This document shows, in pieces, positions 4,887-62,515 of a stretch of 64,000 bases of DNA. Numbering within the stretch: position 1 is the stretch's first letter; every line of letters begins with the position of its first letter. The notes beneath the pieces are model-generated. The model saw only the letters and a program-made list of their open reading frames with translations, was not told the DNA's origin and searched no databases. A program made the translations under genes and the position numbers. Source of the stretch: a bacterium (GTDB lineage Bacteria; Patescibacteriota; Minisyncoccia; Sungbacterales; HO2-52-23); assembly GCA_030697705.1 (NCBI GenBank), contig JAUYPE010000017.1, forward strand, positions 5,066 to 69,065. The letters are read 5' to 3'.

Positions 4887-5083
4887 ATGAAGAAGATGAC
4901 AATAGCCCTTGGATAATAATTTTCGTCGCGAAATTTTATGATTTTGAGTGAGACAAAGTACAATTTCAAAACATATACGCATTATATGTTCAAAAATCCT
5001 TTGCAAAGCTGTTGCAAAGATCCAAAGCTTATACGTGCAGGACAAAGGTTATTACGCAGGGGTACTCCGGTCGTTGATTTATC

Positions 5084-29623: not shown

Positions 29624-30994
29624 CTATCCTCTTTCCCCGCCTTTTTCAATCAATTGCTCAACCTTTTGTTTTGCTTCTTCCAGAAGCTCTTTTGCTTTTA
29701 TGCGCGCCTCATGCGATTGCCTCACCAATTCAGCGATTTTTTGTTGAGCCGCTCTTGGTAAAATGGGAATAAGAATATCTTTTATACTCTCTTTTGGTAC
29801 GGCGGTGAGAATAGTGCCAGCACAGCGTTGTGTAAGCTGATTTTGCACAATGAAACTTTTTGCAATAACAAGCAGAACTTCCGGCAGAACTTCATCGCTT
29901 CTGAATTGAAAAAATCCGGTTGATGCCAGATACCCCTCTTGCTCTTGAGTGACAAGAGCAACTTTTCCCAGTGAACCCTCAACACTAGAGACGATTACAT
30001 CGCCCGCTTTCAATACTCTTTTTGCTCTGCTTGGAGCTTCTTTTCCTAAAACTTTCGTAAAGCCGTCAATTGTCCCGATAGCAGAATTAATATTGGAAAG
30101 CTCAACATAGTTAAAAGATTTATCGGGTTGCACCAGTGTATTAAACTTTGCAAGTACATTATCAAATACTTCCTCCAGCGAACTTGCTTTGTCTGACCTT
30201 AGTTTTGCAAGGAGTTTTTTATATTTCGGTTGAAAGTATTCAGCATCCATCCGGTGTGCATTCTCTATGTCCGAGAAATTGATAATGCTGTACAAATCCC
30301 CATCCGTCGTGAAATCCTTTAACCCCAGCTCCTCCAAAAGCAACTGTTCGGCTTGAGTGTAAAGAGATTTTGAATTCTCTAATTCATGGAGAAAATATTT
30401 GTATGTATCCCCTATTTGTTGTGTTACTTTCTGATCAAAAATAGGGATTTTGAACTTTTTAATCTGTCCAAGAAAGATATTTGCCTGAACGCTACTTACT
30501 ATCTCTCGTTGTGTTTGTAGTAAACCATATTTTGAATTGAGAAATGCGGTCAGATAATAAGGTGACATGGTGTCAAGCGGAGTAATTTTAGCGATAGCTT
30601 GATTGGCATTCGCGCTTCGTGGAAGGTTATGTGCTATTGCCGCGTTTCCGATTGTTCCCGCCATAGTGAGTAAAACTTGACCATTGTTGACTTTTGATTT
30701 TTTTAATATCTCATTAACTTTCTCGCTGATGTACTTTACACTGCTCAAATCAATATATCCGTCATGAACATCACCCACATTTATGTATGGTACGCCTGAC
30801 TCTTGCCATTCAATATGACTAGTAAGCGAGTACGCCCCAAAACTGATAACCGATTTTGAAATTTGCTCTAAGGTTTTTGTTTCTAGCATGGTAAATTTTT
30901 GCTCCAAAGCCAAATACTCCGGCTGATAATACTCCGCATCCAGCCGGTGCGCTCCCTCAAGTTGCGATTTTTGGATTATAGAGAAAGTTGCCAT
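29624..30994 (-). CDS. hsdS: restriction-modification specificity (S) subunit with two target-recognition domains
   Basis: Two TRDs, each followed by the conserved helical spacer (IPIFDQKVTQQIGD..; IPILPRAAQQKIAELV..). Start at MATFSII (ORF track 31102 would overlap upstream gene). Confidence 0.75.
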   Translation of the reverse strand: MATFSIIQKSQLEGAHRLDAEYYQPEYLALEQKFTMLETKTLEQISKSVISFGAYSLTSHIEWQESGVPYINVGDVHDGYIDLSSVKYISEKVNEILKKSKVNNGQVLLTMAGTIGNAAIAHNLPRSANANQAIAKITPLDTMSPYYLTAFLNSKYGLLQTQREIVSSVQANIFLGQIKKFKIPIFDQKVTQQIGDTYKYFLHELENSKSLYTQAEQLLLEELGLKDFTTDGDLYSIINFSDIENAHRMDAEYFQPKYKKLLAKLRSDKASSLEEVFDNVLAKFNTLVQPDKSFNYVELSNINSAIGTIDGFTKVLGKEAPSRAKRVLKAGDVIVSSVEGSLGKVALVTQEQEGYLASTGFFQFRSDEVLPEVLLVIAKSFIVQNQLTQRCAGTILTAVPKESIKDILIPILPRAAQQKIAELVRQSHEARIKAKELLEEAKQKVEQLIEKGGERG

Positions 30995-31079
30995 ACATGT
31001 GTGGATAACCCAGTATTGTTGAGTTTTTGTTGGTAGTGTGCTATGTTTAACTTGGTATATCGGAAGAGGGCGTCGACCG

Positions 31080-31889
31080 TTAGGACGATGGCCCTTTTTC
31101 ATTTGTCTCTAGGGATATAGGCAATCTTTGTTGTATGTCACCATCTACAAAGATATTGAATTTATAGTTTTTAAATCCTTGCGTAAAGTCAGAAACGCCC
31201 ACATTCTTCTTAAAATGTTCAAGAAATCTTCGTTTATATTTATCACCGCGCTGAATCATTCCGGTCTTAAATTTCAAGTCATACGATATCGCTCCAATCA
31301 TAAGATCAGCGATTTGAAGCAGATCATTTGATTTTGAGTCAAAACGCGCCACTCCTGCGATGGATAAGCGACTAAGAGCATCATTGATTTTTCTTTTCAC
31401 ATTCACTTCAAATTTTACATCACGAGGTACTGTTACATGATCAGCAATGACGATTGCGATTTCATTTTGCGCGATATTTGACTTGATAAGCCGAATGGTT
31501 ATATCCTCATACGCTTGCCAAGGATTGCCACCAAATTCCCTCTGAAAATAATTCCCTTGTTTATCAAGTGTATATGAGCAGAAATTGAATCCTTCCGTAG
31601 CAAAAAAAGCGTTTATGGCAAAGACAGCGAAATTAAAATTTTTGTCCGAGAGCTTGTTAAATTTAAGCTCATCATAAAATTGTCGTTTGCTCCTCTCATA
31701 AACGGTCTTGCTTTGAAGATAGTATGGCTGTGAGCATTTGATAGCGCCCACGGTAAAAAACGCCTCCGTCCGATTACTCAAACTTCCGCTCTCATCAAGG
31801 AAAAAGAACTTTGACCAGATGCTTTTATAATCGGCGAGCGCAAGATCTCCTCCTTTCTTATCTTTATGAAAAATTTTATCAAACATCAT
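31080..31889 (-). CDS. DUF3800 family protein inserted between the methyltransferase and S-subunit genes
   Basis: N-terminal FLDESG motif and C-terminal LLQIADLMIGAI motif, characteristic of DUF3800 as I recall it. Confidence 0.55.
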   Translation of the reverse strand: MMFDKIFHKDKKGGDLALADYKSIWSKFFFLDESGSLSNRTEAFFTVGAIKCSQPYYLQSKTVYERSKRQFYDELKFNKLSDKNFNFAVFAINAFFATEGFNFCSYTLDKQGNYFQREFGGNPWQAYEDITIRLIKSNIAQNEIAIVIADHVTVPRDVKFEVNVKRKINDALSRLSIAGVARFDSKSNDLLQIADLMIGAISYDLKFKTGMIQRGDKYKRRFLEHFKKNVGVSDFTQGFKNYKFNIFVDGDIQQRLPISLETNEKGPSS

Positions 31890-31899
31890 GATAGTGCAG

Positions 31900-33852
31900 T
31901 CAAAAACTAAACTTTTGCTCTTTTATAAACTTTAAAAATCCGTCGGCGATGTTGTCCAAGTCGCTGTCTAGTATCTTCTTGCCCCTTCCGTCATGAGCGT
32001 AATTTCCAATTGCGTCTTTCTTGTACATATAATCGCCGGAGTTGTCTTTGCCGCCCTTTTTAGACACAGCCATAAAAATCGGATAGTCCTTTTGCGGCTC
32101 ACCAGCTTCTCCGCCCCATTTCTGCAAAAACAGCACGCTCGTTTTTGTGCCGGTGTGAGGCTTGAATGTATTGCCGTGCAATCCGACCACAGCCAGTATC
32201 CGCGCCTTGTCAAAAAGATACTCGCGGATACTCTCCATATTGGTGTTATTAAGCACGCCCTGCGGAAGCACGATTGCCATTCTGCCGCCCGGGCGGATCA
32301 TATCAAGCGTGCGTTCAATGAAAAGAATATGCCGCTCGGCTTTGTTTACCAGTTTGCCTTTTTTCTTGCCGAAAAAATACTGGCGCAAGATGCCATGGTC
32401 TTTAATCTCGCCCGCAAACGGAGGATTGGTGAGCAGTATGTCAAAATTGAGATAGTGAAATGTTTTTTTATTTTCTTCATTGTCTGCGGTGGAGCCCATA
32501 TCAAACAATCTTTTCTGGAGTTCTGATCGCGCATAAAGCAGATGGCCGTCTTCTCCCTGCCATTCTCGGGAATCAAGGGAGTTGAGCTTAAACAGATGCG
32601 ATCTGCCATCTCCGGCGATAAGCATAAGCGCGCGGGATGTTTTGGAAATTTCGTCCGCAAAATCAATACCCCAGATATTTTTTTGAGCATATTCGCGCAT
32701 CGCCTCATCCGAGCCGCGCAAGTGCCTATCCTTGACGGAATACATCGCGCTGATGAGAAATCCGCCGGAGCCAGCCGCCGGATCTATGACATATTCGTCC
32801 GGTTTAGGATCAAGCATTTTGACGGCCATATTGATGACATGGCGCGGGGTGAAATACTGACCTTTCTTGCCTTTGGCAACTTCGGGTATGAGGTACTCAA
32901 ATGCCTCGTCAATGATTGAGAGATCGGAGCCGAACAGACGGGTTCGTTCAAGCTCTCCGACTACAACGGAAAGATGATCGGGAGACAAGCTGATGTTTTC
33001 CTGCTCGTAGAATGTGCCGGGCCATTTTTTGATAGCTTTTTTAAACAGGTCGTTGATGGTGTTGTATGTTTTTCCCGGATCGCGATATTTGCGAAAAAAG
33101 ATTTCTTTGTCCGGACGCACAAGCGCCTCCGACTCATCATAGAGCTTGGCGTACACAAGTTTGAACACCTCATTGAAAACATCAACGCCCGCGTTTGCAA
33201 GGACAAGCTCCTGCATGGAGTCAATGACTTCTTTGAGATTGATTTTCGTGTTTGTATGTTCAAAGTAGGTTTTCTTTGCTTCCAGAAGGTCATCAATGGT
33301 CTGATCCGATCTCGGAAGATCGGGAAGAGTGTCATTGAACTCGCGTGGGTAAAAACGATACAAGATGACGCGCTTGATGCCGTTTCCCCATACACCAATC
33401 TCCGCGCCCTCGGCGTTTAAATAACCTTTCATCTGCTCAATGCCTTTGCTCTCGGTGGGCGCTTTTACCTCCACAAGAATATAGGGGGTGATTTTGTCCG
33501 GCTTATAAACAACGATATCAACGGCTTTACTGTGAATTTCACGCCCGAAATGAATATCTTTTTCCGTATCCATTCGGTCAAACGGATAGTGATAGTGCTT
33601 ATTGAGCTTAGAGAGCCAAAGTTGGCGGACGATTTCTTCCGGCTTGCCGGTATTTTTCTTTTCATCAAAAACGAACCGAAGCTTGCCCGACTTCAAATCT
33701 TTAATGTAATAACGATCTTTTTCTTCTTCGGTAATGTGTAAAACATCATGAATAGCAATTCCCTCAAACTCTCTCAAGCCAAATGCCATTTCAGAGTCCC
33801 TGAAAATCTTTGTGATAATCTCTTCTGTTCTGTTTGGTTTTTTGGTGGGCAT
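31900..33852 (-). CDS. hsdM: N6-adenine DNA methyltransferase subunit with N-terminal PD-(D/E)xK nuclease-like (HsdR_N-type) domain; either type I HsdM fusion or type IIB (BcgI-like) A subunit
   Basis: MTase motif I VIDPAAGSGGFL and motif IV NPPF (LLTNPPFAG). N-terminal DIVVYKPD ... ILVEVKAP fits a restriction-endonuclease fold. No separate hsdR gene in the window. Confidence 0.75.
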   Translation of the reverse strand: MPTKKPNRTEEIITKIFRDSEMAFGLREFEGIAIHDVLHITEEEKDRYYIKDLKSGKLRFVFDEKKNTGKPEEIVRQLWLSKLNKHYHYPFDRMDTEKDIHFGREIHSKAVDIVVYKPDKITPYILVEVKAPTESKGIEQMKGYLNAEGAEIGVWGNGIKRVILYRFYPREFNDTLPDLPRSDQTIDDLLEAKKTYFEHTNTKINLKEVIDSMQELVLANAGVDVFNEVFKLVYAKLYDESEALVRPDKEIFFRKYRDPGKTYNTINDLFKKAIKKWPGTFYEQENISLSPDHLSVVVGELERTRLFGSDLSIIDEAFEYLIPEVAKGKKGQYFTPRHVINMAVKMLDPKPDEYVIDPAAGSGGFLISAMYSVKDRHLRGSDEAMREYAQKNIWGIDFADEISKTSRALMLIAGDGRSHLFKLNSLDSREWQGEDGHLLYARSELQKRLFDMGSTADNEENKKTFHYLNFDILLTNPPFAGEIKDHGILRQYFFGKKKGKLVNKAERHILFIERTLDMIRPGGRMAIVLPQGVLNNTNMESIREYLFDKARILAVVGLHGNTFKPHTGTKTSVLFLQKWGGEAGEPQKDYPIFMAVSKKGGKDNSGDYMYKKDAIGNYAHDGRGKKILDSDLDNIADGFLKFIKEQKFSF

Positions 33853-33855
33853 AGA

Positions 33856-34500
33856 TTATTTTATTGGTTTCCAGTAGTTGTTCTTTAAAACCGAAACCAC
33901 TTTACCTTTGAGCTCTACATCATCAGTAAAAAGGATATTATTATATTTTGGATTTTCCGGTTTGAGATACACATACGGGGGCTTATCATCAGACATAAAT
34001 CGTTTTATCGTACTGTCATCCCCGATCTGCGCATAGACAATCTCACCCGATATAAACTCTTTCTTTGTTTGCACTAAGACAGCATCACCATCATCAATGC
34101 CTGCGTTGATCATAGAATCGCCTAAAACTTTAAGAATGAATAGATCCTCATCCAAGCGAGAAATCTCCTTTGAGAGCGTTTTCCATTCTCCGGAAATCTC
34201 AAACGATTGAATGGGAGTGCCCGCGCTCGTAACTCCAAGGAACGCCGCGAGAGGCGGTTGGTCAAGGACATTATACCCTGTCCGTAATATGGCAAGCCCG
34301 CGCGCCGCCGTCTCATTGCGCCTTATCAATCCCGCTCGCTTGAGTTTCTCTAAAAGGTCCATCACCGACTGATTGGAAGAAACGCCAAGACGCTCCCGCA
34401 TCTCTTCAAATGTGGGTGGGTATCCCGTATCTCTCGTGTACTCGTATATAATACTTAAGAGCTCTTTTTGCCTCTTGGTAATGATCTTCTCCATCACCAT
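33856..34500 (-). CDS. lexA: LexA-family repressor (winged-helix DNA-binding domain plus S24 peptidase)
   Basis: N-terminal LTKRQKELL..GYPPTFEEM..LG..S...V..HL..L.RAGLI. C-terminal LKVLGDSMINAGIDDGDAVLV with catalytic Ser, and Lys in IKRF. Confidence 0.8.
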   Translation of the reverse strand: MVMEKIITKRQKELLSIIYEYTRDTGYPPTFEEMRERLGVSSNQSVMDLLEKLKRAGLIRRNETAARGLAILRTGYNVLDQPPLAAFLGVTSAGTPIQSFEISGEWKTLSKEISRLDEDLFILKVLGDSMINAGIDDGDAVLVQTKKEFISGEIVYAQIGDDSTIKRFMSDDKPPYVYLKPENPKYNNILFTDDVELKGKVVSVLKNNYWKPIK

Positions 34501-34509
34501 TAGTGTACC

Positions 34510-34523
34510 CGACCATATGTTCT
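34510..34523. promoter_or_regulatory. candidate LexA (Cheo-type) operator immediately upstream of lexA
   Basis: cgaccatatgttct matches CGAACRNRYGTTCG at 12/14 positions. It sits 10 nt upstream of the lexA start. Confidence 0.4.
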
Positions 34524-34783
34524 GGATGCAAATAGATGTCTGTGGATAAGTTCCACATAAGTTCGGAAGAAAATGGCGTTAGAATTTCCAATCAAGTAGT
34601 TGGCGAAGGTGAACGAGCCGCTGGAATTATTCACTGCAATGATTGTCATGAATAAGGCGTTGGTGGTATTCTTAACCGAGAGGCGGTAGTTCTCTTTATA
34701 TCGTATCGCCTGTGAAGTAAAGAAATAAAAGGTCGAAACATGTTATCTGCATTATAAACTTTACCGTAATTCTAGAACAAATC

Positions 34784-35671
34784 ATGAAAAAAATAATTAT
34801 CAGCTTGAGTGTGATCGCGGCGATAGCCGCAGTTGCGGTGGGTGCGACCACGGCGTTCTTCTCGGATACCGAGACCTCGCGAGGCAACACCTTTACCGCA
34901 GGAGCGATTGACTTAAAGATTGACAGCAGATGCCACTGGAGCGGCGGGGACACGGGATCAACGACGTGTCCGTGGGAGAGTGCGAATTGGCAAGAAACCG
35001 ATCTGGGAACTCAGAAATTCTTCAGCTTCAATGATATCAAGCCGGGTGACTGGGGAGAGAACACTATCAGCATCCATGTCCACGACAATGACGCATGGGG
35101 ATCGTGGGGCATTGCAAACGCAACGAGCAGTGAGGGCACTTGCACCGAACCTGAAACGGAAACGCAGGCATTGGGAACTACTCCGTGCGTGGAAAACGCC
35201 ACGCCGGGTCAGCTTAGAGCGGGCATGACCGGTAAGGCGTGGCTTGATCAGGGAAGTACTCCGGGATTTCAGTGCAATGATCCGAATGGTGATACGACAA
35301 CAGCCGGTGCGGGATGCCTTCGTGATCCGTTTGAGGGAGATAATGTGTGGCAACAACAATCTGAACCGGTAATCGCGAGCACTGTGGCTCCCCAGTCATT
35401 CTTTGATGTTTTCACGAATATTGATCTGGCAGGACCCCTTGCGGCAGAGGCGAGCGCAAAATGCGAGGCGGCGGCGGTAGACGGACACGATGACTACGGA
35501 CCATGCCACGGCCTTGCACGGGATGGTCGTTTGGTAGGGAGCGTTACTTATTACATCGGCTGGAAGTGGCATCTTGATCCCAGTACCGGAAATGAAGCGC
35601 AAACCGACACGCTTGGCGGCGATGTGTGGTTTAAAGCCGAACAGCACCGCAATAATCCCGGTCCCACCTAA
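34784..35671 (+). CDS. TasA/camelysin-like (peptidase M73 family) secreted protein with SipW-cognate signal peptide
   Basis: Signal MKKIIISLSVIAAIAAVAVGATTAFFSDTE (TIGR04088-type AFFSDTE motif). Camelysin-like FFSFNDIKPGDWGENTISIHV. Confidence 0.7.
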   Translation: MKKIIISLSVIAAIAAVAVGATTAFFSDTETSRGNTFTAGAIDLKIDSRCHWSGGDTGSTTCPWESANWQETDLGTQKFFSFNDIKPGDWGENTISIHVHDNDAWGSWGIANATSSEGTCTEPETETQALGTTPCVENATPGQLRAGMTGKAWLDQGSTPGFQCNDPNGDTTTAGAGCLRDPFEGDNVWQQQSEPVIASTVAPQSFFDVFTNIDLAGPLAAEASAKCEAAAVDGHDDYGPCHGLARDGRLVGSVTYYIGWKWHLDPSTGNEAQTDTLGGDVWFKAEQHRNNPGPT

Positions 35672-35742
35672 CGACGATCTTCGTCTTTGACGTAAACTAA
35701 CCTTCTCTTGGTTCTTATCAGAGCGGAGAGAAGATATGTCTC

Positions 35743-36537
35743 ATGAAAAAGATCATTTTTAGTTTGGGCGTGATCGGCGCGGTTGCCGTTATGGCGGTTG
35801 GGGGTACCGTTGCGTTTTTTAACGACACGGAGACCTCACAGGGTAATGTCTTTATAGCCGGATCCGTGGATCTGCAGGTGGACAGCTTCGGCGCGTCTTA
35901 CAATGGCGAGGATATTGAGACGCCCGGCTCGGCGTGGACCTCCCGAAATTTGACGAACCAGAAATTCTTTTCGTTTGACGACATTAAGCCCGGGGACTAT
36001 GGCATGCGTCACATCAGCGTACATGTGGACGGCAATCCTGCGTGGGCGTGCCTCCTCGTAACGAACAAAGAGGACGAAGAGAATGATCTGAACGATGCGG
36101 AGCATGACGCGGGAGATACCACACCGGATAGGGGCGAGCTCTCGCGCTACCTGCATGCCTTCGGCTGGCAGGACGATGACTCTGACGGAAGGTATGATCC
36201 GCACCATGGCGAAAAGGCGCTCAAAATCCACAACGATCCCGATGCGGACTTTAACTCGTTCTTTGATGTCTTCTATGATCTTGACATAGCCGACTCGCAG
36301 TCCAGCACCGATCCGCTTCCGCCAAATGGCCCGGCAACGACGCGCAATATCGCGGTTGCGTGGTGCGCGGGCGTGCAGTCGGTCAATCATCAGACGGGAG
36401 TAATCTCCTGCGACGGCTCCGATGTGCGGGATGATGCGCAGTCCGACTCGTTCAGTGCCGACGTGGTGCTCTACGGAGAACAGGTGCGCAATAATCCGAA
36501 TTTCAGGTGTGCGGACGTCCTCCTGCCTCCGCTCTAA
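35743..36537 (+). CDS. TasA/camelysin-like secreted protein with SipW-cognate signal peptide (paralog)
   Basis: VAFFNDTETSQGN and FFSFDDIKPGDYGMRHISVHV. Confidence 0.7.
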   Translation: MKKIIFSLGVIGAVAVMAVGGTVAFFNDTETSQGNVFIAGSVDLQVDSFGASYNGEDIETPGSAWTSRNLTNQKFFSFDDIKPGDYGMRHISVHVDGNPAWACLLVTNKEDEENDLNDAEHDAGDTTPDRGELSRYLHAFGWQDDDSDGRYDPHHGEKALKIHNDPDADFNSFFDVFYDLDIADSQSSTDPLPPNGPATTRNIAVAWCAGVQSVNHQTGVISCDGSDVRDDAQSDSFSADVVLYGEQVRNNPNFRCADVLLPPL

Positions 36538-36650
36538 TGTTAAGAAGAGTAACTCCACAAGATATGCGCTAAGACCTTTCACTCCCCCTCTCCGCTTGTG
36601 ACGGAGGGAGGGAGCACAGAGAGCTTATCACACAGGAGGTCTTGATTTTT

Positions 36651-37187
36651 ATGGACACAAAAAAAATTGCCATCACCAGTTATTATGTGTTTGTCAGCGT
36701 ACTCGGCATCGTGGGAGTTTTGGTTGTCGTTTCGGCTTTCCCGATTACCGGTAATTTTAAGATTATGGCGGTGTTGTCCGGCTCTATGGAGCCGGCTATT
36801 CGGACCGGCAGTATTGTCGTCGTGCGTCCCAGTACCAGCTATTCCATTGGCAATATTGTTACCTTCACCGGAACAAGTGGGGGGAAAAGCATCCCGATCA
36901 CGCATCGGGTGATGGAAATACGAGTGGATCGGGGCGTGCCTTCATATATAACTAAAGGAGACGCGAATAATGCGCCCGACGCACGGCTCGTTGCGCACCG
37001 AGAGATTATCGGGGGGTTGGTATTTTCTGTTCCCTATCTTGGCTATGGGGTGGAGACCGCGCGAAAGCCCTACGGTCTTGCGGCACTGATTCTGCTTCCC
37101 GCGGCATTGATCATCATTGACCAGGCGGGAAGAATTAAAAAAGAACTTGCCAGGTTACGACGCGAAAAAGAAGAAAAAACCATCTGA
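36651..37187 (+). CDS. sipW: signal peptidase I, SipW (S26B, archaeal/ER-type)
   Basis: LSGSMEP catalytic Ser box and conserved His in ITHRV. AGGAGG Shine-Dalgarno 12 nt upstream of ATG 36651. Confidence 0.75.
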   Translation: MDTKKIAITSYYVFVSVLGIVGVLVVVSAFPITGNFKIMAVLSGSMEPAIRTGSIVVVRPSTSYSIGNIVTFTGTSGGKSIPITHRVMEIRVDRGVPSYITKGDANNAPDARLVAHREIIGGLVFSVPYLGYGVETARKPYGLAALILLPAALIIIDQAGRIKKELARLRREKEEKTI

Positions 37188-37189
37188 AC

Positions 37190-39463
37190 ATGAAAACGAA
37201 AAGTTTTTTTCCAAAAATAACGGCGCTCGCCCTTATCCTCACGCTTAACGCGGGCGGGATTTTGACGGTCGGCTCCACGCTCGCGTTTTTTAACGATGCC
37301 GAGACAGCGGGTGATAGTTTGTTTGTGGCGGGAATACTTAATTTTTCCCTCGCTTCTGATGAATGGACTCCTGTTGATAGTGCCGGGGCGCTCAAATCAG
37401 GAGATATGATAACGCGGCATATGAGCATTCTGGCGGGTGACAGTATTCCCTTTCAATATCGGATCAGAACAATAAAAACATCGGGAGATGATGCGTTTTG
37501 CGGCGCACTGCACATGGTTGCGAGCCGTGGGGCTGTTTCGTTGTATGACGGCGTGCTGATGGATTTTGATCTCACGCCTCCGGTAGAAATTGAGGGAGAC
37601 GGACAGGATGATTGGTCGTTTAAGATGAGTATGCCGACCAGTGCTGGCTCCTTTGTCGGGAAAACATGCGAATTTCGCTTTGTCGTGGACGGATGGCAGG
37701 TGGAGTTTCCCGACGGGACAGGCGGATTCAGCGACCGAGAGGCGCTTGAAAATATTCTTGAGAGCGATGATACGGCTCGAGAAGACGGCGGGCAAAACAT
37801 TTCAGCGCTGGAGGACTCATACGGCGAACAGGAGCATCCGGATGACACGAATGGAACTGCGGGCGACCTGCGGGTAAAATCACAATCGGGCGGGAAGAAT
37901 AAACGCGCCTTCGTCCGCTTTGATTTCCCTTTTCCCGACGGGACGGCAATTCAGTCGGCGGCATTAAAAATGTTCATGGATGATGCGCCTTCCGCGTCGC
38001 GGACGTATGCGGTCGCCCGAACGCTCTCGCCATGGACTGAAGCGAGTATTTCGTGGAACAATCAGCCGGGAACATCCAGTCCCATGAGCGCATCGGCGGT
38101 AACCGGAATTACCGATGATCAATGGCTTGCGTGGGATGTCAAAGATGACGCGAGCGCATTTGTGGCGGGTACGGCTACCAATTATGGATGGACCGTATTT
38201 GACGCGATGGAGAGTTCGGCAACCGCCCGTGAGGGAAAGTTCAGCTCAAGTGAAAATAGCCATCAAGACAAGCGACCGGTGCTGGAGGTCGCATTCAGCG
38301 CACCCCCCGCAACCACATCGCATATCGTCATAAACGAAGTATACGCCGATGTGGGAGACGGAAGGGGTTCCGAAGGGACGAATGAGTGGGTTGAGCTCTA
38401 TAACCCGACGGAGTCGGCTGTTGACATCAAGGATTGGCAGGTGTGCGATGCGGCATCGTGCGATTCGTTTGCAACAACTTCATCCTCAATCATGCTTCCG
38501 AGCCGCGGATTCGCAGTGGTGACGGCTGGTACCTCCACCTGGCAACATTGGGTGCTTCCCGAAGGAGCGATACGGATCGTTCTTGGCGCGAACATCGGCG
38601 GTGGACTCGCAAATCCCGGAGATGCGGTTATTTTGAAGAATGCCTCCAGCGCCGAAATTGACGCGATGAGCTACGGGACCGACACCTCAAAATTAAATCC
38701 TGCAGTTCCCGTTTCAGGCGAGGGCAACTCACTTGCGCGAATCGTAAAGGGATACGACGCAGAATTGGCAAACGACTGGATTATCAATGCGACGGCAAAT
38801 CCGGGAACCAATCCATCCGAGGATGGTACCAGTGAGGTCATGCGCTTCACGAGCCGCGGTAGTGAAGTTGCGGCCGGTGAGAACGGCTTGCCCGCTCTGG
38901 ACACTACGGCGATTCCCGACGAACCGGAAAAACAGATTCTGAAAGAAGAGCCACCGCCTGAAGTTAAGAAGGATGGAGAAGAAACGGAGGACGCCGGGGT
39001 AAGAGATGCGATTAACACCGATGGGGAGCCGGCGTCCTCCCATGCGGCACCAACCGATGGAGATGAATTGCCGCTTATGGTACCGTCAGAAGAAGATCAA
39101 GCAACCACGATGGTGGTTGTTGAATCACACGACGCTGCGACGACAACCTTGTTGATTCTTGAAGGAGAGCTACAATCAACGCCTGTGGAGGAGCGTGTGC
39201 CTGCCGATACAGAGACACCTCACGCCGACGGGACGGAACAAGATATCGTACCGGAACCGGATGGGGTAAATCACAGCAACATGGGTGAGAGTCAAATTTT
39301 ACCTCCGGCGACCATCCCGGAAGTTACGAATGAAAACGCCCTACTGCCAGCGGAAAATAAGCCCGCTGGTGGCGGTGATGGAGGGGGTGATCCGACCACT
39401 CCCGCGGGCGGCGAGGAAGTACCGTTGCCCACACCCATTGCCGACAACGCGGTATTGCAATAA
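37190..39463 (+). CDS. large secreted protein with SipW-cognate signal peptide and a lamin-tail domain (LTD)
   Basis: LAFFNDAETAGD signal motif. LTD-like HIVINEVYADVGDG...NEWVELYNPTESAVDIKDWQV...GDAVILKNASSAEIDAMSYG. Acidic, Pro/Glu-rich C-terminus. Confidence 0.6.
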   Translation: MKTKSFFPKITALALILTLNAGGILTVGSTLAFFNDAETAGDSLFVAGILNFSLASDEWTPVDSAGALKSGDMITRHMSILAGDSIPFQYRIRTIKTSGDDAFCGALHMVASRGAVSLYDGVLMDFDLTPPVEIEGDGQDDWSFKMSMPTSAGSFVGKTCEFRFVVDGWQVEFPDGTGGFSDREALENILESDDTAREDGGQNISALEDSYGEQEHPDDTNGTAGDLRVKSQSGGKNKRAFVRFDFPFPDGTAIQSAALKMFMDDAPSASRTYAVARTLSPWTEASISWNNQPGTSSPMSASAVTGITDDQWLAWDVKDDASAFVAGTATNYGWTVFDAMESSATAREGKFSSSENSHQDKRPVLEVAFSAPPATTSHIVINEVYADVGDGRGSEGTNEWVELYNPTESAVDIKDWQVCDAASCDSFATTSSSIMLPSRGFAVVTAGTSTWQHWVLPEGAIRIVLGANIGGGLANPGDAVILKNASSAEIDAMSYGTDTSKLNPAVPVSGEGNSLARIVKGYDAELANDWIINATANPGTNPSEDGTSEVMRFTSRGSEVAAGENGLPALDTTAIPDEPEKQILKEEPPPEVKKDGEETEDAGVRDAINTDGEPASSHAAPTDGDELPLMVPSEEDQATTMVVVESHDAATTTLLILEGELQSTPVEERVPADTETPHADGTEQDIVPEPDGVNHSNMGESQILPPATIPEVTNENALLPAENKPAGGGDGGGDPTTPAGGEEVPLPTPIADNAVLQ

Positions 39464-39472
39464 AAGAATATA

Positions 39473-40756
39473 ATGCATATTCCGGTTGTCAGCTTTTCGC
39501 TCCTAAAAAAGATTGTGCTCGCGGGCGTTGTGCTTGTGTGTTCATTCGGTTTTCCTTATGCACATGCCGCGAATGATGACCTTGTGGTTGAGTTTGAACA
39601 GACCCCCCTTTTTAACAAGGCGAATTTTCTGCCGGGCGAGATGGTAAGCCGTACCGTGAAGGTAACGAACAATACAGGCGCGTCCCAACAGATTACGACA
39701 GAGGCGATTGCCATAAGCGATCCGCATCATCTGGGCGATGTTTTACGCATAACGGTGAAAGAGGGCGCCATCATGTTTTTTGACGGAACGCTTGCGGAGT
39801 TTTTTGGCAGCGGCGCGCATATGCTCTCCCATCTGGCGGCAGGAGTTGCGACAACCTACACCTACTCGGTTTCGTTTAAGTCCGATGCGGGCAACGCGTA
39901 TCAGGAAGAATCGCTCGGTTTTGATATACTCGTCGGATTTGAGGGCAATGCGGGAGACGGCAATCCTTCTTCACCCGAAGGAGGTGTGACCCCGCAAGGT
40001 GGTGGAGGCACGGGCGGTACAAGTGGTGGAGGTGGTGATTCTGGCGGTCCTCGGGGGCTTACTATTACCGGCGAGCTTGTTCGCGTTGTTGAAATTGGCG
40101 AGACCACTGTGATCATTGAATGGGGCACGAGTTATGAATCCACGAGCCGCGTCGTGTACGGCACGGCGAGCGGATTATTCAATTTTTCCAACACTCCCAA
40201 TTACGGCTACCCACTTTCCACCATTGAATCCGACGCGCCGGCACATCCCAACGGTGTTCTCGCTCACCGCGTCCTCATCAGCGGACTCGTACCGGCAACG
40301 ATCTATTATTTTCGTACGATTTCCCACGCCTCACCCGACACAATCGGTTTTGAACATACTTTTACGACTCTAGGCTCCCGCGACAGTCAAAGCGCGGTCA
40401 TTGCTTCCGGCGGGCGGCTTCCCATATCCTCTTCGGGAGAGGTGCTTGTTTCGGCGGGTGGAGAAAGGAGCGTACAACGGATTGGATCGGGTGCCGAGGT
40501 GAATAATGCTCCCTTTCCTCTCTCTCGCGCTTCAGAAAGTAGCGCAGGCGACACGGGTGTTTCGGAACGCCGGAATGAAAATCTGTTGGAGGATGCTGGC
40601 CGCGCATTCACTCCCCTCCTCGCCGTTCTTTCCGCCGCCCTGCCGTTTGTCGGTAAAGAAGGAGGTCGCATCATGCTTATTGTTCTGATAATCGCTCTGC
40701 TTCTTTCCCTTATCGTCTGGCGCCTCTCTCGCCACAGAAGAAAAAATAAGAAGTAG
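39473..40756 (+). CDS. secreted protein with fibronectin type III-like domain, Gly-rich linker and C-terminal TM anchor
   Basis: Signal peptide. FN3-like LTITGELVRVVEIGETTVIIEWGT...YYFRTIS. C-terminal IMLIVLIIALLLSLIVW + RLSRHRRKNKK. Confidence 0.5.
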   Translation: MHIPVVSFSLLKKIVLAGVVLVCSFGFPYAHAANDDLVVEFEQTPLFNKANFLPGEMVSRTVKVTNNTGASQQITTEAIAISDPHHLGDVLRITVKEGAIMFFDGTLAEFFGSGAHMLSHLAAGVATTYTYSVSFKSDAGNAYQEESLGFDILVGFEGNAGDGNPSSPEGGVTPQGGGGTGGTSGGGGDSGGPRGLTITGELVRVVEIGETTVIIEWGTSYESTSRVVYGTASGLFNFSNTPNYGYPLSTIESDAPAHPNGVLAHRVLISGLVPATIYYFRTISHASPDTIGFEHTFTTLGSRDSQSAVIASGGRLPISSSGEVLVSAGGERSVQRIGSGAEVNNAPFPLSRASESSAGDTGVSERRNENLLEDAGRAFTPLLAVLSAALPFVGKEGGRIMLIVLIIALLLSLIVWRLSRHRRKNKK

Positions 40757-43462: not shown

Positions 43463-44300
43463 TCCTAGTCAATTGGTACAAGCGTTAATGATTTTTGCAG
43501 ATACTCATGCGGGTTTTCAAACAATTCCGGCAGGGAAAATCTGAAGCAAAATTCCCTCACATAGTCAGGCATCTTCTCAGGGGTAGCATGGTGATACATT
43601 CTTCTGATGAAGGTACGCAGGTTTCCGAACATTCTCTCAATCTCCGAGGTGTGAGCAAACTCAAACTTCTCGTGAATATCCCTCATATGCCGTACTGGCC
43701 ACCAGCGGTTGATCCCTTGGTAGATAGCGGCGCGTCGTCCGTATGCAGGCGGCTCCGAGGACGCACATGCTGTTCAAGGAAGCGTACAAGCATGGTGGCG
43801 CTGGACGCTATGCCCCGAGAGCATCTCAAACGCTACCTTGCGCGTTCCCTTCTGCTTCCCCATGAGTAACGACCATCGGGTGCCATACGCTTCATCCAAC
43901 TGCACGATATGCTCAAGAATAAGAGGATTTTCCGGTATCTGCGTCCGAAACAGATCACACCATCGTCGTACCGCTTCTTCAGAAAAAACAGCGAGTGCCT
44001 GTGTCCGCTTCACCGGCACTCTACTGGTCCAACACCAGAGCAAGAGCCAGAACTTTTGATACGACAGCTTCATGTCTTTGAGCCATGTGTGGGAGACCAG
44101 GGAAAACTTTAAGCGACGAGGGGCGACATCGGTACCGATCCTCGTATCGTAACACCCTACGAGACCTGGAGGTGGGACAGAAGACATTCTTACCAAAAAG
44201 AACGCGGCGGAGGTACTTCTTTACTTGAGCTTCTGAAGGTATCTGTTTGAGATGGTACCTATCGGGTAGTATACCCAATTTGTACCAACTGACTTAGGAG
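43463..44300 (-). mobile_element. IS1595-family insertion sequence, transposase degraded by frameshifts, with about 22-bp terminal inverted repeats
   Basis: TIR ctcctagtcaattggtacaag (43463-43483) versus revcomp of 44274-44300 ctcctaagtcagttggtacaaat. Transposase fragments: ISXO2-like N-terminal part (IVQLDEAYGTRW..GKQKGTRKVAF, 43774..44196) and C-terminal part (TSEIERMFGNLRTFIRRMYHH, 43465..43686) in different frames. Confidence 0.6.
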
Positions 44301-61450: not shown

Positions 61451-61472
61451 AAAAACTCGATCAACGAGAATA

Positions 61473-61556
61473 TGGGTAGGGTGAGAGTTGAACTCACGAG
61501 GCCTATTAGACAGCAGATTTACAGTCTGCCCCCGCCCCCTACGGGTCTACCTACCC
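61473..61556 (-). tRNA. tRNA-Tyr(GTA), long variable arm
   Basis: Acceptor gggtagg / cctaccc. Anticodon arm gcaga ctgtaaa tctgc is identical to E. coli tRNA-Tyr. T arm gtgag ttcaact ctcac. Confidence 0.7.
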
Positions 61557-62341
61557 AGCTCATTCATAATCCATTCAAATCGTTCACCATGCTTGGGATT
61601 CTTCGGTTGTATTTCTTGAAAAAAACGAATAATTTCCGGACGCTTTGTTATATAAAACCTAAAACCGCTTATATGAGATGGGTGGTAATCTAAAAACTTA
61701 CACGCTCTGTGGATACCCTTCAAAAGCGGCAGTGACCTATTGGTAAACGATATCTGTACACCAAATCGCAACCGGTACACAGATCCGTCAGTGTCAAAGA
61801 AACCTCGCACCAAGCGCTCAAGGTACTGCGATTTCTCAAAGATCCATTCGGGAACGCTAACCTGCGCTCGTACTTTATTGTATACCAAACCTTCATCTTT
61901 CAGCCAATGACTGAGTGCTACGGATCCAACATAAACATTCTTATAACCTGTCTTTCGGATGCCTATTTTGGGAGCTACCCCAAAGAGTCCCTTCATGAGC
62001 CGAACGATATATTCCGCATATGCATACTCTTTTGTCCCCAGTGTTACAATAACTTGATAGAACGAGAGGTTGCCGTCCCCCAGCATAATCCCAAAGAATT
62101 CAGCAAGATCGGGTGAATAGGATTTTGGAATGATAATATCCTCGCGTCTTTTTGCGCTATACCCTTTTTTAAGGTACGGCGTTGATACAATGCCCAGTCG
62201 CTGTATTCTCTGAAATACGGTCTGCTCGGCGATACCAAGAATCTTGCCAACTTCTCTAATCGTTTTATTTTCAACGGTATAGAGACGGTTGAGTTCTTTT
62301 CTCATCTTTCCTTCTTCCCCATGAGTCCATCGCCGAGGCAT
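61547..62341 (-). CDS. LAGLIDADG homing endonuclease (double-motif) with N-terminal HTH domain
   Basis: Two LAGLIDADG motifs: FGIMLGDGNLS and RGFFDTDGSVY. N-terminal sigma-70-region-4-like HTH (TIREVGKILGIAEQTVFQRIQRL). Start at MPRRW. Last codons overlap the tRNA-Tyr 5' end (stop is the tRNA U8-A9-G10). Confidence 0.75.
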   Translation of the reverse strand: MPRRWTHGEEGKMRKELNRLYTVENKTIREVGKILGIAEQTVFQRIQRLGIVSTPYLKKGYSAKRREDIIIPKSYSPDLAEFFGIMLGDGNLSFYQVIVTLGTKEYAYAEYIVRLMKGLFGVAPKIGIRKTGYKNVYVGSVALSHWLKDEGLVYNKVRAQVSVPEWIFEKSQYLERLVRGFFDTDGSVYRLRFGVQISFTNRSLPLLKGIHRACKFLDYHPSHISGFRFYITKRPEIIRFFQEIQPKNPKHGERFEWIMNELGR

Positions 62342-62443
62342 GACACCATCGTAGCAAAACAAGCGTGATAAAGCAAGTTTTGCAATTGATGGCTCTACTA
62401 TGCTAGTAAAGACTTCAGACCAAGAACACTCCAATCTCATGAG

Positions 62444-62515
62444 AGCCGACCCCGAGAGTCGAACTCGGAACCTTCGCTTTACAAAAGCGTTGCTCTGCCA
62501 TTGAGCTAGGTCGGC
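62444..62515 (-). tRNA. tRNA-Thr(TGT)
   Basis: gccgacc ta gctc aatggca gagc a acgct tttgtaa agcga aggtt ccgag ttcgact ctcgg ggtcggc t. Confidence 0.7.

Follow-up and report, generated by a model that had tools for sequence, protein, structure and literature searches.

The 64,000 nt window analysed here is a stretch of contig JAUYPE010000017.1 (assembly GCA_030697705.1), from a bacterium of the Patescibacteriota, and all positions are those of the window unless another locus is named. It contains an operon of five open reading frames (ORFs) on the plus strand, A-B-sipW-D-E (Table 1), which were read from the window sequence; the public gene calls agree for sipW and D. A and B encode TasA-like proteins, sipW an archaeal-type signal peptidase, D a multidomain protein with a lamin tail domain (LTD) and E a protein with a probable fibronectin type III (FN3) domain and a C-terminal transmembrane (TM) helix. 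The intergenic gaps are 71 nt between A and B, about 110 nt between B and sipW, 2 nt between sipW and D and 9 nt between D and E. An RNA hairpin lies in the gap between B and sipW.

Table 1. Positions of the genes, domains and other features of the window, with fusion genes and extra hairpin copies of related loci (locus:positions)
Feature	Position	Strand	Description or basis
Candidate sigma-70-like promoter	34643-34672	+	TTGTCA-18-TATTCT with TG; weak consensus match, low confidence
Gene A	34784-35671	+	295 aa, TasA-like, SipW-type signal, cleavage predicted A24↓F25
Gene B	35743-36537	+	264 aa, TasA-like, SipW-type signal, cleavage predicted A24↓F25
Bipartite RNA hairpin, between B and sipW	36570-36627	+	folding and covariance model
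sipW	36651-37187	+	178 aa, archaeal/endoplasmic reticulum (ER)-type signal peptidase I
Gene D	37190-39463	+	757 aa, multidomain, SipW-type signal
D residues 1-203	37190-37798	+	SipW-type signal (cleavage predicted A32↓F33), donor-strand-like segment, compact TasA-like beta-sandwich; BLASTP, hhalign
D residues 204-367	37799-38290	+	CBM96/DNRLRE domain; PF24517 81.2 bits (cut-off 26), NF033679 88.3 (cut-off 34)
D residues 373-496	38306-38677	+	LTD; PF00932 61.8 bits (cut-off 34.3)
D residues 497-757	38678-39463	+	acidic Pro/Glu/Thr-rich low-complexity tail without membrane or wall anchor; translation
Gene E	39473-40756	+	427 aa, TasA-fold, FN3 and C-terminal TM
E residues 1-32	39473-39568	+	conventional Sec signal peptide (...PYAHA↓AN) without FFxDxE motif; sequence
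E residues 33-160	39569-39952	+	TasA-fold beta-sandwich without N-terminal donor-strand segment; AlphaFold2 (AF2), Foldseek, hhalign
E residues 161-193	ahead of FN3 domain	+	Gly-rich linker; AF2 model
E residues 198-298	40064-40366	+	probable FN3 domain; PF16656 just under the cut-off, AF2 beta-sandwich with predicted local distance difference test (pLDDT) 86-96
E residues 305-380	between FN3 and TM helix	+	disordered stalk; AF2 model
E residues 397-426	40661-40750	+	C-terminal TM helix, then basic tail RHRRKNKK; AF2 helix
SipW-substrate fusions	L025:12773-14338; L079:13677-15167; L045:12442-14010; L033:11737-13188; L058, L075, L077, L081, L023, L055		single ORFs
Extra hairpin copies	L013:1086-1144, 2501-2556; L057:66-148, 1390-1450; L059:7894-7949; L065:9406-9458; L012:603-660		covariance model
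lexA	33856-34500	-	divergent from gene A
N6 methylase with HSDR_N	31900-33852	-	type I restriction-modification block
DUF3800 protein	31080-31889	-	type I restriction-modification block
Specificity subunit	29624-31102	-	type I restriction-modification block
CopC-domain ORF	1899-5045	-	1048 aa
Broken IS1595-family transposase	43465-44196	-	73 aa ORF, last 40 positions of PF12762 only (28.2 bits)
tRNA-Tyr	61472-61557		
LAGLIDADG_3 ORF	61547-62440	-	297 aa, E-value 1.7e-10
tRNA-Thr	62443-62515		

The signal peptidase and its putative substrates

The translations of A and B carry signal and cleavage motifs that read ...GATTA↓FFSDTETS and ...GGTVA↓FFNDTETS, the arrow marking the predicted cut. Both score above the cut-off of 19 bits of TIGR04088, the SipW-dependent-type signal (27.7 for A and 25.6 for B), and above that of PF12389 (TasA/camelysin, Peptidase_M73; cut-off 22.5), at 23.1 over residues 6-48 only in A and 28.3 over residues 7-118 in B. 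The two proteins are paralogous, with 35% identity over the full length (E-value 4e-42). Against the Bacillus TasA equivalog NF046066 B has only 16.6 bits and does not reach the cut-off of 450, so that by the NCBI equivalog cut-off A and B are classed as members of the family and not as TasA orthologues. B has been deposited in NCBI as a 'TasA family protein' (MDZ4299904.1) from an unclassified bacterial metagenome-assembled genome (MAG). There are 328 relatives of B in the protein collection, the named ones coming from Parcubacteria, Pacebacteria, Campbellbacteria and other Patescibacteria.

The AF2 model of B has a pLDDT of 73.7. Its top fold match in the PDB, and the only one with an E-value of 0.001 or less, is the TasA fibre subunit 8aur_A (E-value 2.1e-4, probability 1.0). 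The B. subtilis TasA sequence used as a query is identical to 8aur_A over residues 28-261. Its alignment with B pairs TasA residues 3-68 with B residues 1-67 (39% identity, E-value 4e-6), and the SipW cleavage site of TasA, A27↓A28, falls opposite A24↓F25 of B. The mature N-terminus of B, FFNDTETSQGNVFIAGSVDL, is thereby aligned opposite TasA AFNDIKSKDATFASGTLDL, the donor-strand region, at the sequence level only. In the TasA fibre the donor strand is formed by residues 28-38 and completes the next subunit (PMC9674648). Ten of the 33 invariant columns of the B family fall in residues 24-50, and the AF2 monomer has low confidence over residues 17-40, where the donor strand would lie. This conservation and low model confidence together are compatible with an inter-subunit strand, without being proof of one.

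The B family also has four invariant cysteines, C103, C208, C223 and C256, while B. subtilis TasA has none. Its invariant acidic residues include D28, E30, D47, D80, D85, E120, D184 and D235. Disulfides, or Ca2+ sites such as those of archaeal cannulae or AbpX-type proteins, are conceivable. No metalloprotease motif of the HExxH type is seen in the translations of A, B and D, and a camelysin-like protease identity was set aside on this ground.

The product of sipW matches TIGR02228, the archaeal-type signal peptidase I, with 105.9 bits (cut-off 51.85), and remains under the cut-off of 47 in the bacterial LepB model TIGR02227, with 15.4 bits. It scores 103.1 bits in the Bacillus SipW equivalog NF046067, below the cut-off of 190. 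It is, on these scores, the same enzyme type as Bacillus SipW, yet not the Bacillus orthologue by the NCBI cut-off. The sole solved relatives are the human catalytic subunits SEC11A/C (E-value 2.6e-10; SEC11A is 7p2p). SGSMEP, (I/V)HRV (ITHRV in the window) and KGD(A/N)N (KGDANN in the window) align between the sipW product and SEC11A, and the active-site stretch reads VLSGSMEPA. The Ser of SGSMEP, the His of ITHRV and the Asp of KGDANN are taken, from established knowledge of the family, to be the catalytic residues. By sequence, the enzyme is thus predicted to be a Ser-His-Asp peptidase of the ER/archaeal type, in place of one with a Ser/Lys dyad. There are TM segments at both the N- and the C-terminus. 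The ORF opens at TTG 36642, where the gene had been taken to start; however, an AGGAGG at 36634-36639 lies 11 nt 5' of ATG 36651, and only 2 nt 5' of the TTG. Since this spacing suits the ATG, and the public gene call also has 178 aa, the ATG is the likelier start. No second signal peptidase was found among about 45 ORFs scanned in the window, which is a fraction of the genome.

D carries the motif ...GSTLA↓FFNDAETA, and is under the cut-off in TIGR04088 (14.6 against 19), TIGR04089 (16.7) and PF12389 (19.4 against 22.5). Its relationship to B is found by BLASTP (E-value 1e-7) and by hhalign of the B family against a 50-member family of the D N-domain (probability 98.5%, E-value 1.6e-15), which spans the signal-motif region. 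None of the D-type proteins in 48 other loci has a C-terminal hydrophobic segment; they end in acidic Pro/Glu/Val-rich tails.

An earlier note on this DNA, made from the sequence alone, described two TasA/camelysin-like proteins, an archaeal-type (SGSMEP) signal peptidase and a 757 aa LTD protein. These descriptions hold, A and B through TIGR04088, PF12389 and the fold match of B, the peptidase through TIGR02228 and its failure in the LepB-type model, and D through PF00932 and a public gene call of the same length. The CBM96/DNRLRE domain of D is an addition to that account. The note also placed the SipW-cognate motif in three consecutive proteins. All three motifs are present and A and B are recognised by TIGR04088, but D is not, and the three genes are not strictly consecutive because sipW intervenes between B and D. 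On this evidence A, B and also D are very probably SipW-dependent, secreted proteins of the TasA family.

Conservation of the cluster and the nature of E

Related loci were sampled by a pattern-plus-tblastn scan of one genome per GTDB species, which gave 507 stretches encoding relatives of B, of which 80 were kept. Profiles of every part of the cluster were run against the ORFs called in 83 loci; the counts below are conditional on loci chosen by similarity to B. Almost all of the 80 kept stretches are from genomes labelled as Patescibacteria lineages. The closest relative of B, at 75% identity, is from Sungiibacteriota, and other lineages are Parcubacteria, Paceibacterota, Saccharibacteria-labelled MAGs, Nomura-, Taylor-, Vogel-, Kaiser-, Adler-, Buchanan- and Moranbacteria, Microgenomates, WWE3 and CPR3. 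In loci L011, L016, L021, L027, L047 and L060 the cluster is in assemblies titled as uncultured Gammaproteobacteria, Desulfobacterales or Pseudomonadales; these titles may be automatic mislabels of Patescibacteria bins, or may reflect contamination.

The typical order is two to five TasA-like genes, sipW, a further TasA-like gene (often with an LTD, sometimes with CBM96) and an E-like gene. sipW is present in 75 of the 83 loci, and seven of the eight exceptions are truncated by a contig edge. In 61 of 69 loci sipW has a TasA-like gene immediately behind it or is fused with one, and an E-like gene is found downstream in 32 of the 61 loci with enough sequence. A lone 419 aa TasA-like ORF is present from 7974 in the 16.7 kb locus L054 (Candidatus Microsyncoccus archaeolyticus PMX.50), with no sipW, D-type or E-type gene nearby.

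A single ORF of 480-730 aa combines sipW with the D-type gene downstream of it in at least 10 loci, so that the peptidase is joined to its own predicted substrate. The SipW part occupies residues 1 to about 170 and is followed by a linker of 60-80 residues, a SipW-type signal (e.g. GSTVSYFSDTEG) and a TasA-like domain. These SipW-substrate fusions are therefore independent evidence for the link between the enzyme and its substrates.

Protein E is of a different kind. Its signal peptide is conventional, with A32 nearly invariant in 48 homologues, and E matches neither TIGR04088 nor PF12389; a Pfam scan of the 48 family members does not have PF12389 among the listed families. There are 51 relatives of E, all from Patescibacteria where named. 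The probable FN3 domain of E itself reaches 28.0 bits in PF16656, where the cut-off is 30, while all 48 family members match this family (best E-value 8e-12) and 35 of 48 match PF00041. A hydrophobic 19-mer (mean Kyte-Doolittle 1.7-3.5) is found at the C-terminus of 24 of the 25 E-like proteins from other loci, mostly followed by basic residues. Together with the modelled FN3 sandwich and the C-terminal helix (Table 1), this agrees with the FN3/TM-anchored protein that had been described here.

A TasA fold for the N-domain of E, lacking the donor strand, had not been part of that description. In the AF2 model a signal helix is followed by a beta-sandwich, residues 57-156 of which are predicted at a pLDDT of about 95, against about 74 for the whole model. 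The N-domain families of D and E align by hhalign with a probability of 95.9% (E-value 5.5e-9; D 63-165 with E 47-153), BLASTP aligns D 58-126 with E 42-110 (E-value 1e-5), and the E-domain profile also matches the D-type proteins of L060, L001 and L052 in a small ORF set. By these alignments the N-domains of E and D are homologous. Relative to the shared core, mature D (from F33) carries about 16 more N-terminal residues, FFNDAETAGDSLFVAG, than mature E (from A33). A weak alignment of TasA 50-75 with E 42-67 likewise has E starting just past the TasA donor strand. The operon is, on this reading of the domains, one of four TasA-fold modules, three with a SipW signal and a donor-like strand, and E, which has neither of these and is membrane-anchored.

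In a Foldseek search of the E model against the PDB, the TasA subunit 8aur_A is at rank 6 (E-value 3e-5) and, at 4.2 Å, has the lowest root mean square deviation (rmsd) among the top matches. Ranked above it are two-domain proteins that superpose poorly (rmsd 16-24 Å), including WxLIP (9i25_C, 9i1y; E-value about 1e-6). WxLIP proteins (DUF916-DUF3324-TM) of Enterococcus and Lactobacillus resemble E in having a signal peptide, a beta-sandwich, an Ig-like domain and a C-terminal TM segment, and they tether secreted WxL proteins by beta-strand insertion (PMC10599100). E could accordingly be a membrane-bound assembly factor or a tether that works differently, whether a TapA-like or chaperone-like nucleator or an inserter of a hairpin in the manner of WxLIP, and not a base subunit. 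TapA is a chaperone or nucleator and not a filament subunit (PMC10151520), and the absence of E from about half of the clusters would suit such a role. However, only the layout of WxLIP agrees, the superposition having an rmsd of 17-18 Å against 4.2 Å for TasA, and its partners are WxL and not TasA-like proteins. When Pfam families are ranked by how often the 48 E-family members match them (E-values of up to 10), neither DUF916 nor DUF3324 is in the first 25. In addition, the N-domain of E is homologous to the core of the D N-domain, and the strand that TapA donates is missing from E. An assembly-factor role for E is for these reasons quite unlikely.

The RNA hairpin and the flanks of the operon

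A hairpin between B and sipW, which the earlier note placed at about 36585-36612, is real and is the inner part of a longer bipartite stem. The complete element folds at -25.4 kcal/mol (z -2.95), and none of 200 shuffles folds as well; it is only this 58 nt element that is significant, folding of the entire B-sipW gap (123 nt) not being so (z -1.4). It consists of an outer stem, an internal loop and a GC-rich inner stem (36582-36614) with the loop CUUGUGA. The loop GCUUGUGAC is common to four copies, those of the window, L004, L009 and L039, despite their differing stems.

Other loci usually have a comparable structure wherever the gap ahead of sipW, counted from the nearest upstream TasA-like gene, is longer than about 40 nt. 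A hairpin of -20 kcal/mol or better is found in 91% of 32 such gaps, compared with 8% of random windows of the same length and 2% of shuffles (Mann-Whitney p about 1e-14, random windows from the same loci). The outer stem is conserved, approximately GAAGYCUUUU...AUAAAGRCUUC, and is followed by the internal loop and an inner stem of 10-12 bp that is GC-rich and varies in sequence by locus. In a MAFFT alignment of 20 copies, 13 of the 14 pairs predicted by RNAalifold show compensatory double changes. A covariance model, R1, built from this alignment was run against both strands of 1.13 Mb of sequence. When the copies are aligned by the model, 93% of cells pair, against 46-67% in slid registers, and double changes are seen in 113 cells, compared with 35 +/- 5 in shuffles (none of 500 reaches 113); these figures lean in favour of the structure because the alignment was fitted to it. 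The R1 match in the window has 46.1 bits (E-value 6.7e-6). Rfam has no match at the gathering score over the window, and none with an E-value of 1 or less over 34400-37300.

The hairpin might be only a generic terminator, or a copy of a genome-wide palindromic repeat, with no role specific to the operon. The palindrome is imperfect and hence gives weaker matches on the minus strand, and a few copies are followed by a T-run, e.g. that of L012. Against this, all 33 R1 matches with an E-value of 1 or less are inside TasA-like clusters, and there is only one in the 64 kb window. Plus-strand scores are 10-29 bits above the palindromic minus-strand echoes, and G-U pairs are frequent, both of which point to an RNA transcribed from the sense strand. 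A U-tract is lacking in most copies. In L003, L012 and L036 the hairpin occupies the entire 42-61 nt gap ahead of sipW, and in the window it fills most of the short gap between B and sipW, so that sipW, and in the window D and E with it, must be transcribed through the hairpin. A generic element is thus very unlikely. R1 also matches between two TasA-like genes, or just upstream of one, in five loci (Table 1). Some of these copies at junctions were new, and the motif is therefore a feature of the 3' side of certain subunit genes.

The malE-malF hairpin is an inter-cistronic 3' protective structure (PMC5927463). It resembles that of the window as a stable stem-loop right after an upstream, presumably abundant cistron, without a U-tract; there is no sequence relationship, and unlike it the motif of the candidate phyla radiation (CPR) has a conserved outer and a variable inner stem. 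By this analogy the hairpin probably keeps the subunit mRNA in excess, either by partial attenuation or by protecting or processing the 3' end.

The flanks of the operon are chromosomal in character. The divergent upstream neighbour is lexA, beyond which there is a type I restriction-modification block (Table 1), and the GC content falls to 0.39 at 30001-32000, inside the region of this block. Promoter-like sites in the 283 nt divergent region between lexA and gene A are at chance level (10, with 7.1 +/- 2.5 expected from shuffles). LexA as a regulator of the operon was dropped, as lexA is not beside the cluster in L001-L003, the three related loci with readable gene calls. Downstream, a small membrane ORF, a DUF2585 gene and msrA are convergent with E, and a terminator scan finds no canonical terminator downstream of E. 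Other genes of the window are dnaG, rpoD, obg, rsmH, tsf and those for a penicillin-binding protein and an aminoacyl-tRNA synthetase.

Elsewhere in the window there is a broken IS1595-family transposase, adjoined in another frame by a 140 aa ORF with no Pfam match. A LAGLIDADG_3 ORF lies between the genes for tRNA-Tyr and tRNA-Thr and overlaps the tRNA-Tyr coordinates by 11 nt. The sole Pfam match of a 1048 aa ORF is a CopC domain at residues 78-174.

A putative tethered fibre

With moderate confidence, the region can be read as a single operon whose products build a membrane-tethered extracellular fibre of the TasA type that depends on SipW. Polymerisation, membrane anchoring of the fibre, a role in attachment and the function of the hairpin are the parts that we infer. 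SipW would cut after the Ala of xA↓FF(N/S)DxE and expose an N-terminal segment whose residues pair one by one with TasA 28-46 in the alignment. A and B would then polymerise head-to-tail as B. subtilis TasA does, each subunit filling the beta-sandwich of the next with its N-terminal strand. D would be incorporated through its strand and would display CBM96 and LTD as a glycan- or surface-binding adhesin subunit. E, exported by an ordinary AXA signal, would accept a strand and could not donate one; held by its C-terminal helix behind the FN3 spacer and the disordered stalk, it would be the cell-proximal end at which the fibre is rooted. The hairpin after B may keep the A/B mRNA above the sipW-D-E mRNA and so tune the ratio of subunits to accessory proteins.

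Several results weigh against this reading. The fold similarity between the B model and TasA is moderate (TM-scores 0.37/0.42), and the sequence similarity of A and B to TasA and PF12389 is mostly limited to the signal peptide and the first 100 or so residues. A profile of 60 B-family proteins finds no match among PDB sequences, even at E-values of up to 10, and the TasA link of B therefore rests on the N-terminal alignment and the fold. The direct profile comparison of the B and E families fails as well, giving a 14-column match at KPGD/LPGE with a probability of 21%, and 0.2% in a second run. The homology of E to the TasA-like proteins is for this reason supported only via D. The E-like gene is missing in about half of the loci with room for it, so E is not an obligatory part. 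Finally, no T-run is present 3' of the window hairpin and the terminator scan finds nothing there; without a U-tract, the hairpin is not a canonical terminator.

The first of these results would also suit SipW-dependent surface proteins that do not polymerise. A, B and D might be monomeric envelope proteins, S-layer-associated proteins or camelysin-like enzymes, D being a free glycan binder and E an unrelated beta-sandwich membrane protein. PF12389 is named after camelysin, a reported metalloprotease, and its matches here mainly cover the signal region; A and B are also far larger than the compact core of the TasA fold, and their four invariant cysteines have no counterpart in B. subtilis TasA. 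However, conservation peaks in the N-terminal segment that follows the cleavage site and matches the TasA donor strand, and A, B and D have no motif of the HExxH type. Subunit systems typically have a tight, conserved operon of this kind, in which two to five paralogues are encoded together with their own peptidase and a fold-mate that is anchored, and the experimentally studied SipW/TasA-family systems compared here all form fibres. Non-polymerising proteins are therefore an unlikely explanation, and a tethered fibre is preferred.

The resemblance to tapA-sipW-tasA of B. subtilis (PDB 8AUR), which had been drawn from the sequence, holds in part. The gene for an archaeal/ER-type peptidase is beside those of its TasA-like substrates, the segment after the cleavage motif xA↓(A/F)FND can be aligned with the donor strand of TasA, and the subunits have a jelly-roll fold. 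The parallel is incomplete because there is no TapA homologue, none of the five proteins having a match to a TapA family of NCBIfam or Pfam with an E-value of 1 or less. The clusters also differ in having two to five subunit paralogues (35% identical in the window) with the four invariant cysteines, subunit genes ahead of sipW, a CBM96 and LTD adhesin-like subunit and a TM-anchored TasA-fold protein without a strand, and the window genes fail the Bacillus equivalogs (16.6 against 450 in NF046066, 103 against 190 in NF046067). TapA donates a strand to start TasA filaments (PMC10151520; PMC9674648), whereas E could only accept one, so the proposed logic of anchoring is inverted with respect to Bacillus.

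A TapA homologue is likewise absent from the sipW-tasA...calY genes of B. cereus, where fibres are made from sipW and two TasA paralogues (PMC4292775). In that thick-walled Firmicute, unlike here, calY is transcribed separately and no membrane-anchored TasA-fold protein or LTD/CBM96 subunit has been reported. The archaeal bundling pili (AbpA/AbpB of Pyrobaculum, PDB 7UEG) and other archaeal TasA-like filaments also have subunits of the TasA superfamily, donor strand complementation and a multi-domain accessory protein in the operon; they differ in that the operon is without a dedicated signal peptidase and in that AbpB is TapA-like and not a strand-less anchored subunit (PMC9245690). Chaperone-usher pili (FimH/PapG-type) are similar by analogy only. 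Their beta-sandwich subunits are joined by N-terminal strands and one terminal subunit, without the extension, is an acceptor only (PMC10151520). The proteins are unrelated, however, and the system of the window has no chaperone, usher or outer membrane. The strand-less subunit of these pili is the distal adhesin, while that of the window carries the membrane anchor.

Annotation at the level of genes is already public, B being recorded as a TasA family protein, and homologues of PF12389 in Patescibacteria have been noted (PMC9245690). A literature search of incomplete coverage found no published account of the CPR cluster beyond this remark on distribution. The conserved four-part architecture, the strand-less anchored TasA-fold protein, the SipW-substrate fusions and the RNA motif thus appear, within that coverage, to be undescribed. 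What is new here is the architecture and the RNA element, and not the kind of system.

The attachment of the ultra-small, host-dependent CPR bacteria to hosts and surfaces is usually credited to type IV pili. The cluster occurs in the genomes of hundreds of Patescibacteria species and offers a concrete, testable candidate, a donor-strand fibre of the TasA type that would have a peptidase of its own, a base anchored in the membrane and a subunit resembling an adhesin. In addition, the RNA motif of the operon is conserved, covaries clearly and has no counterpart in Rfam. Tentatively, it is possible that many CPR/Patescibacteria build a self-contained pilus of the TasA type as a second attachment organelle beside type IV pili, with strand-less, TM-anchored E as the root, paralogous subunits as the shaft, a CBM96 and LTD protein as the adhesin for hosts or glycans and the covarying RNA motif setting the ratio. 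If true, this would extend the assembly logic of the TasA superfamily, with an anchored acceptor that has no strand of its own in place of a TapA that donates one.

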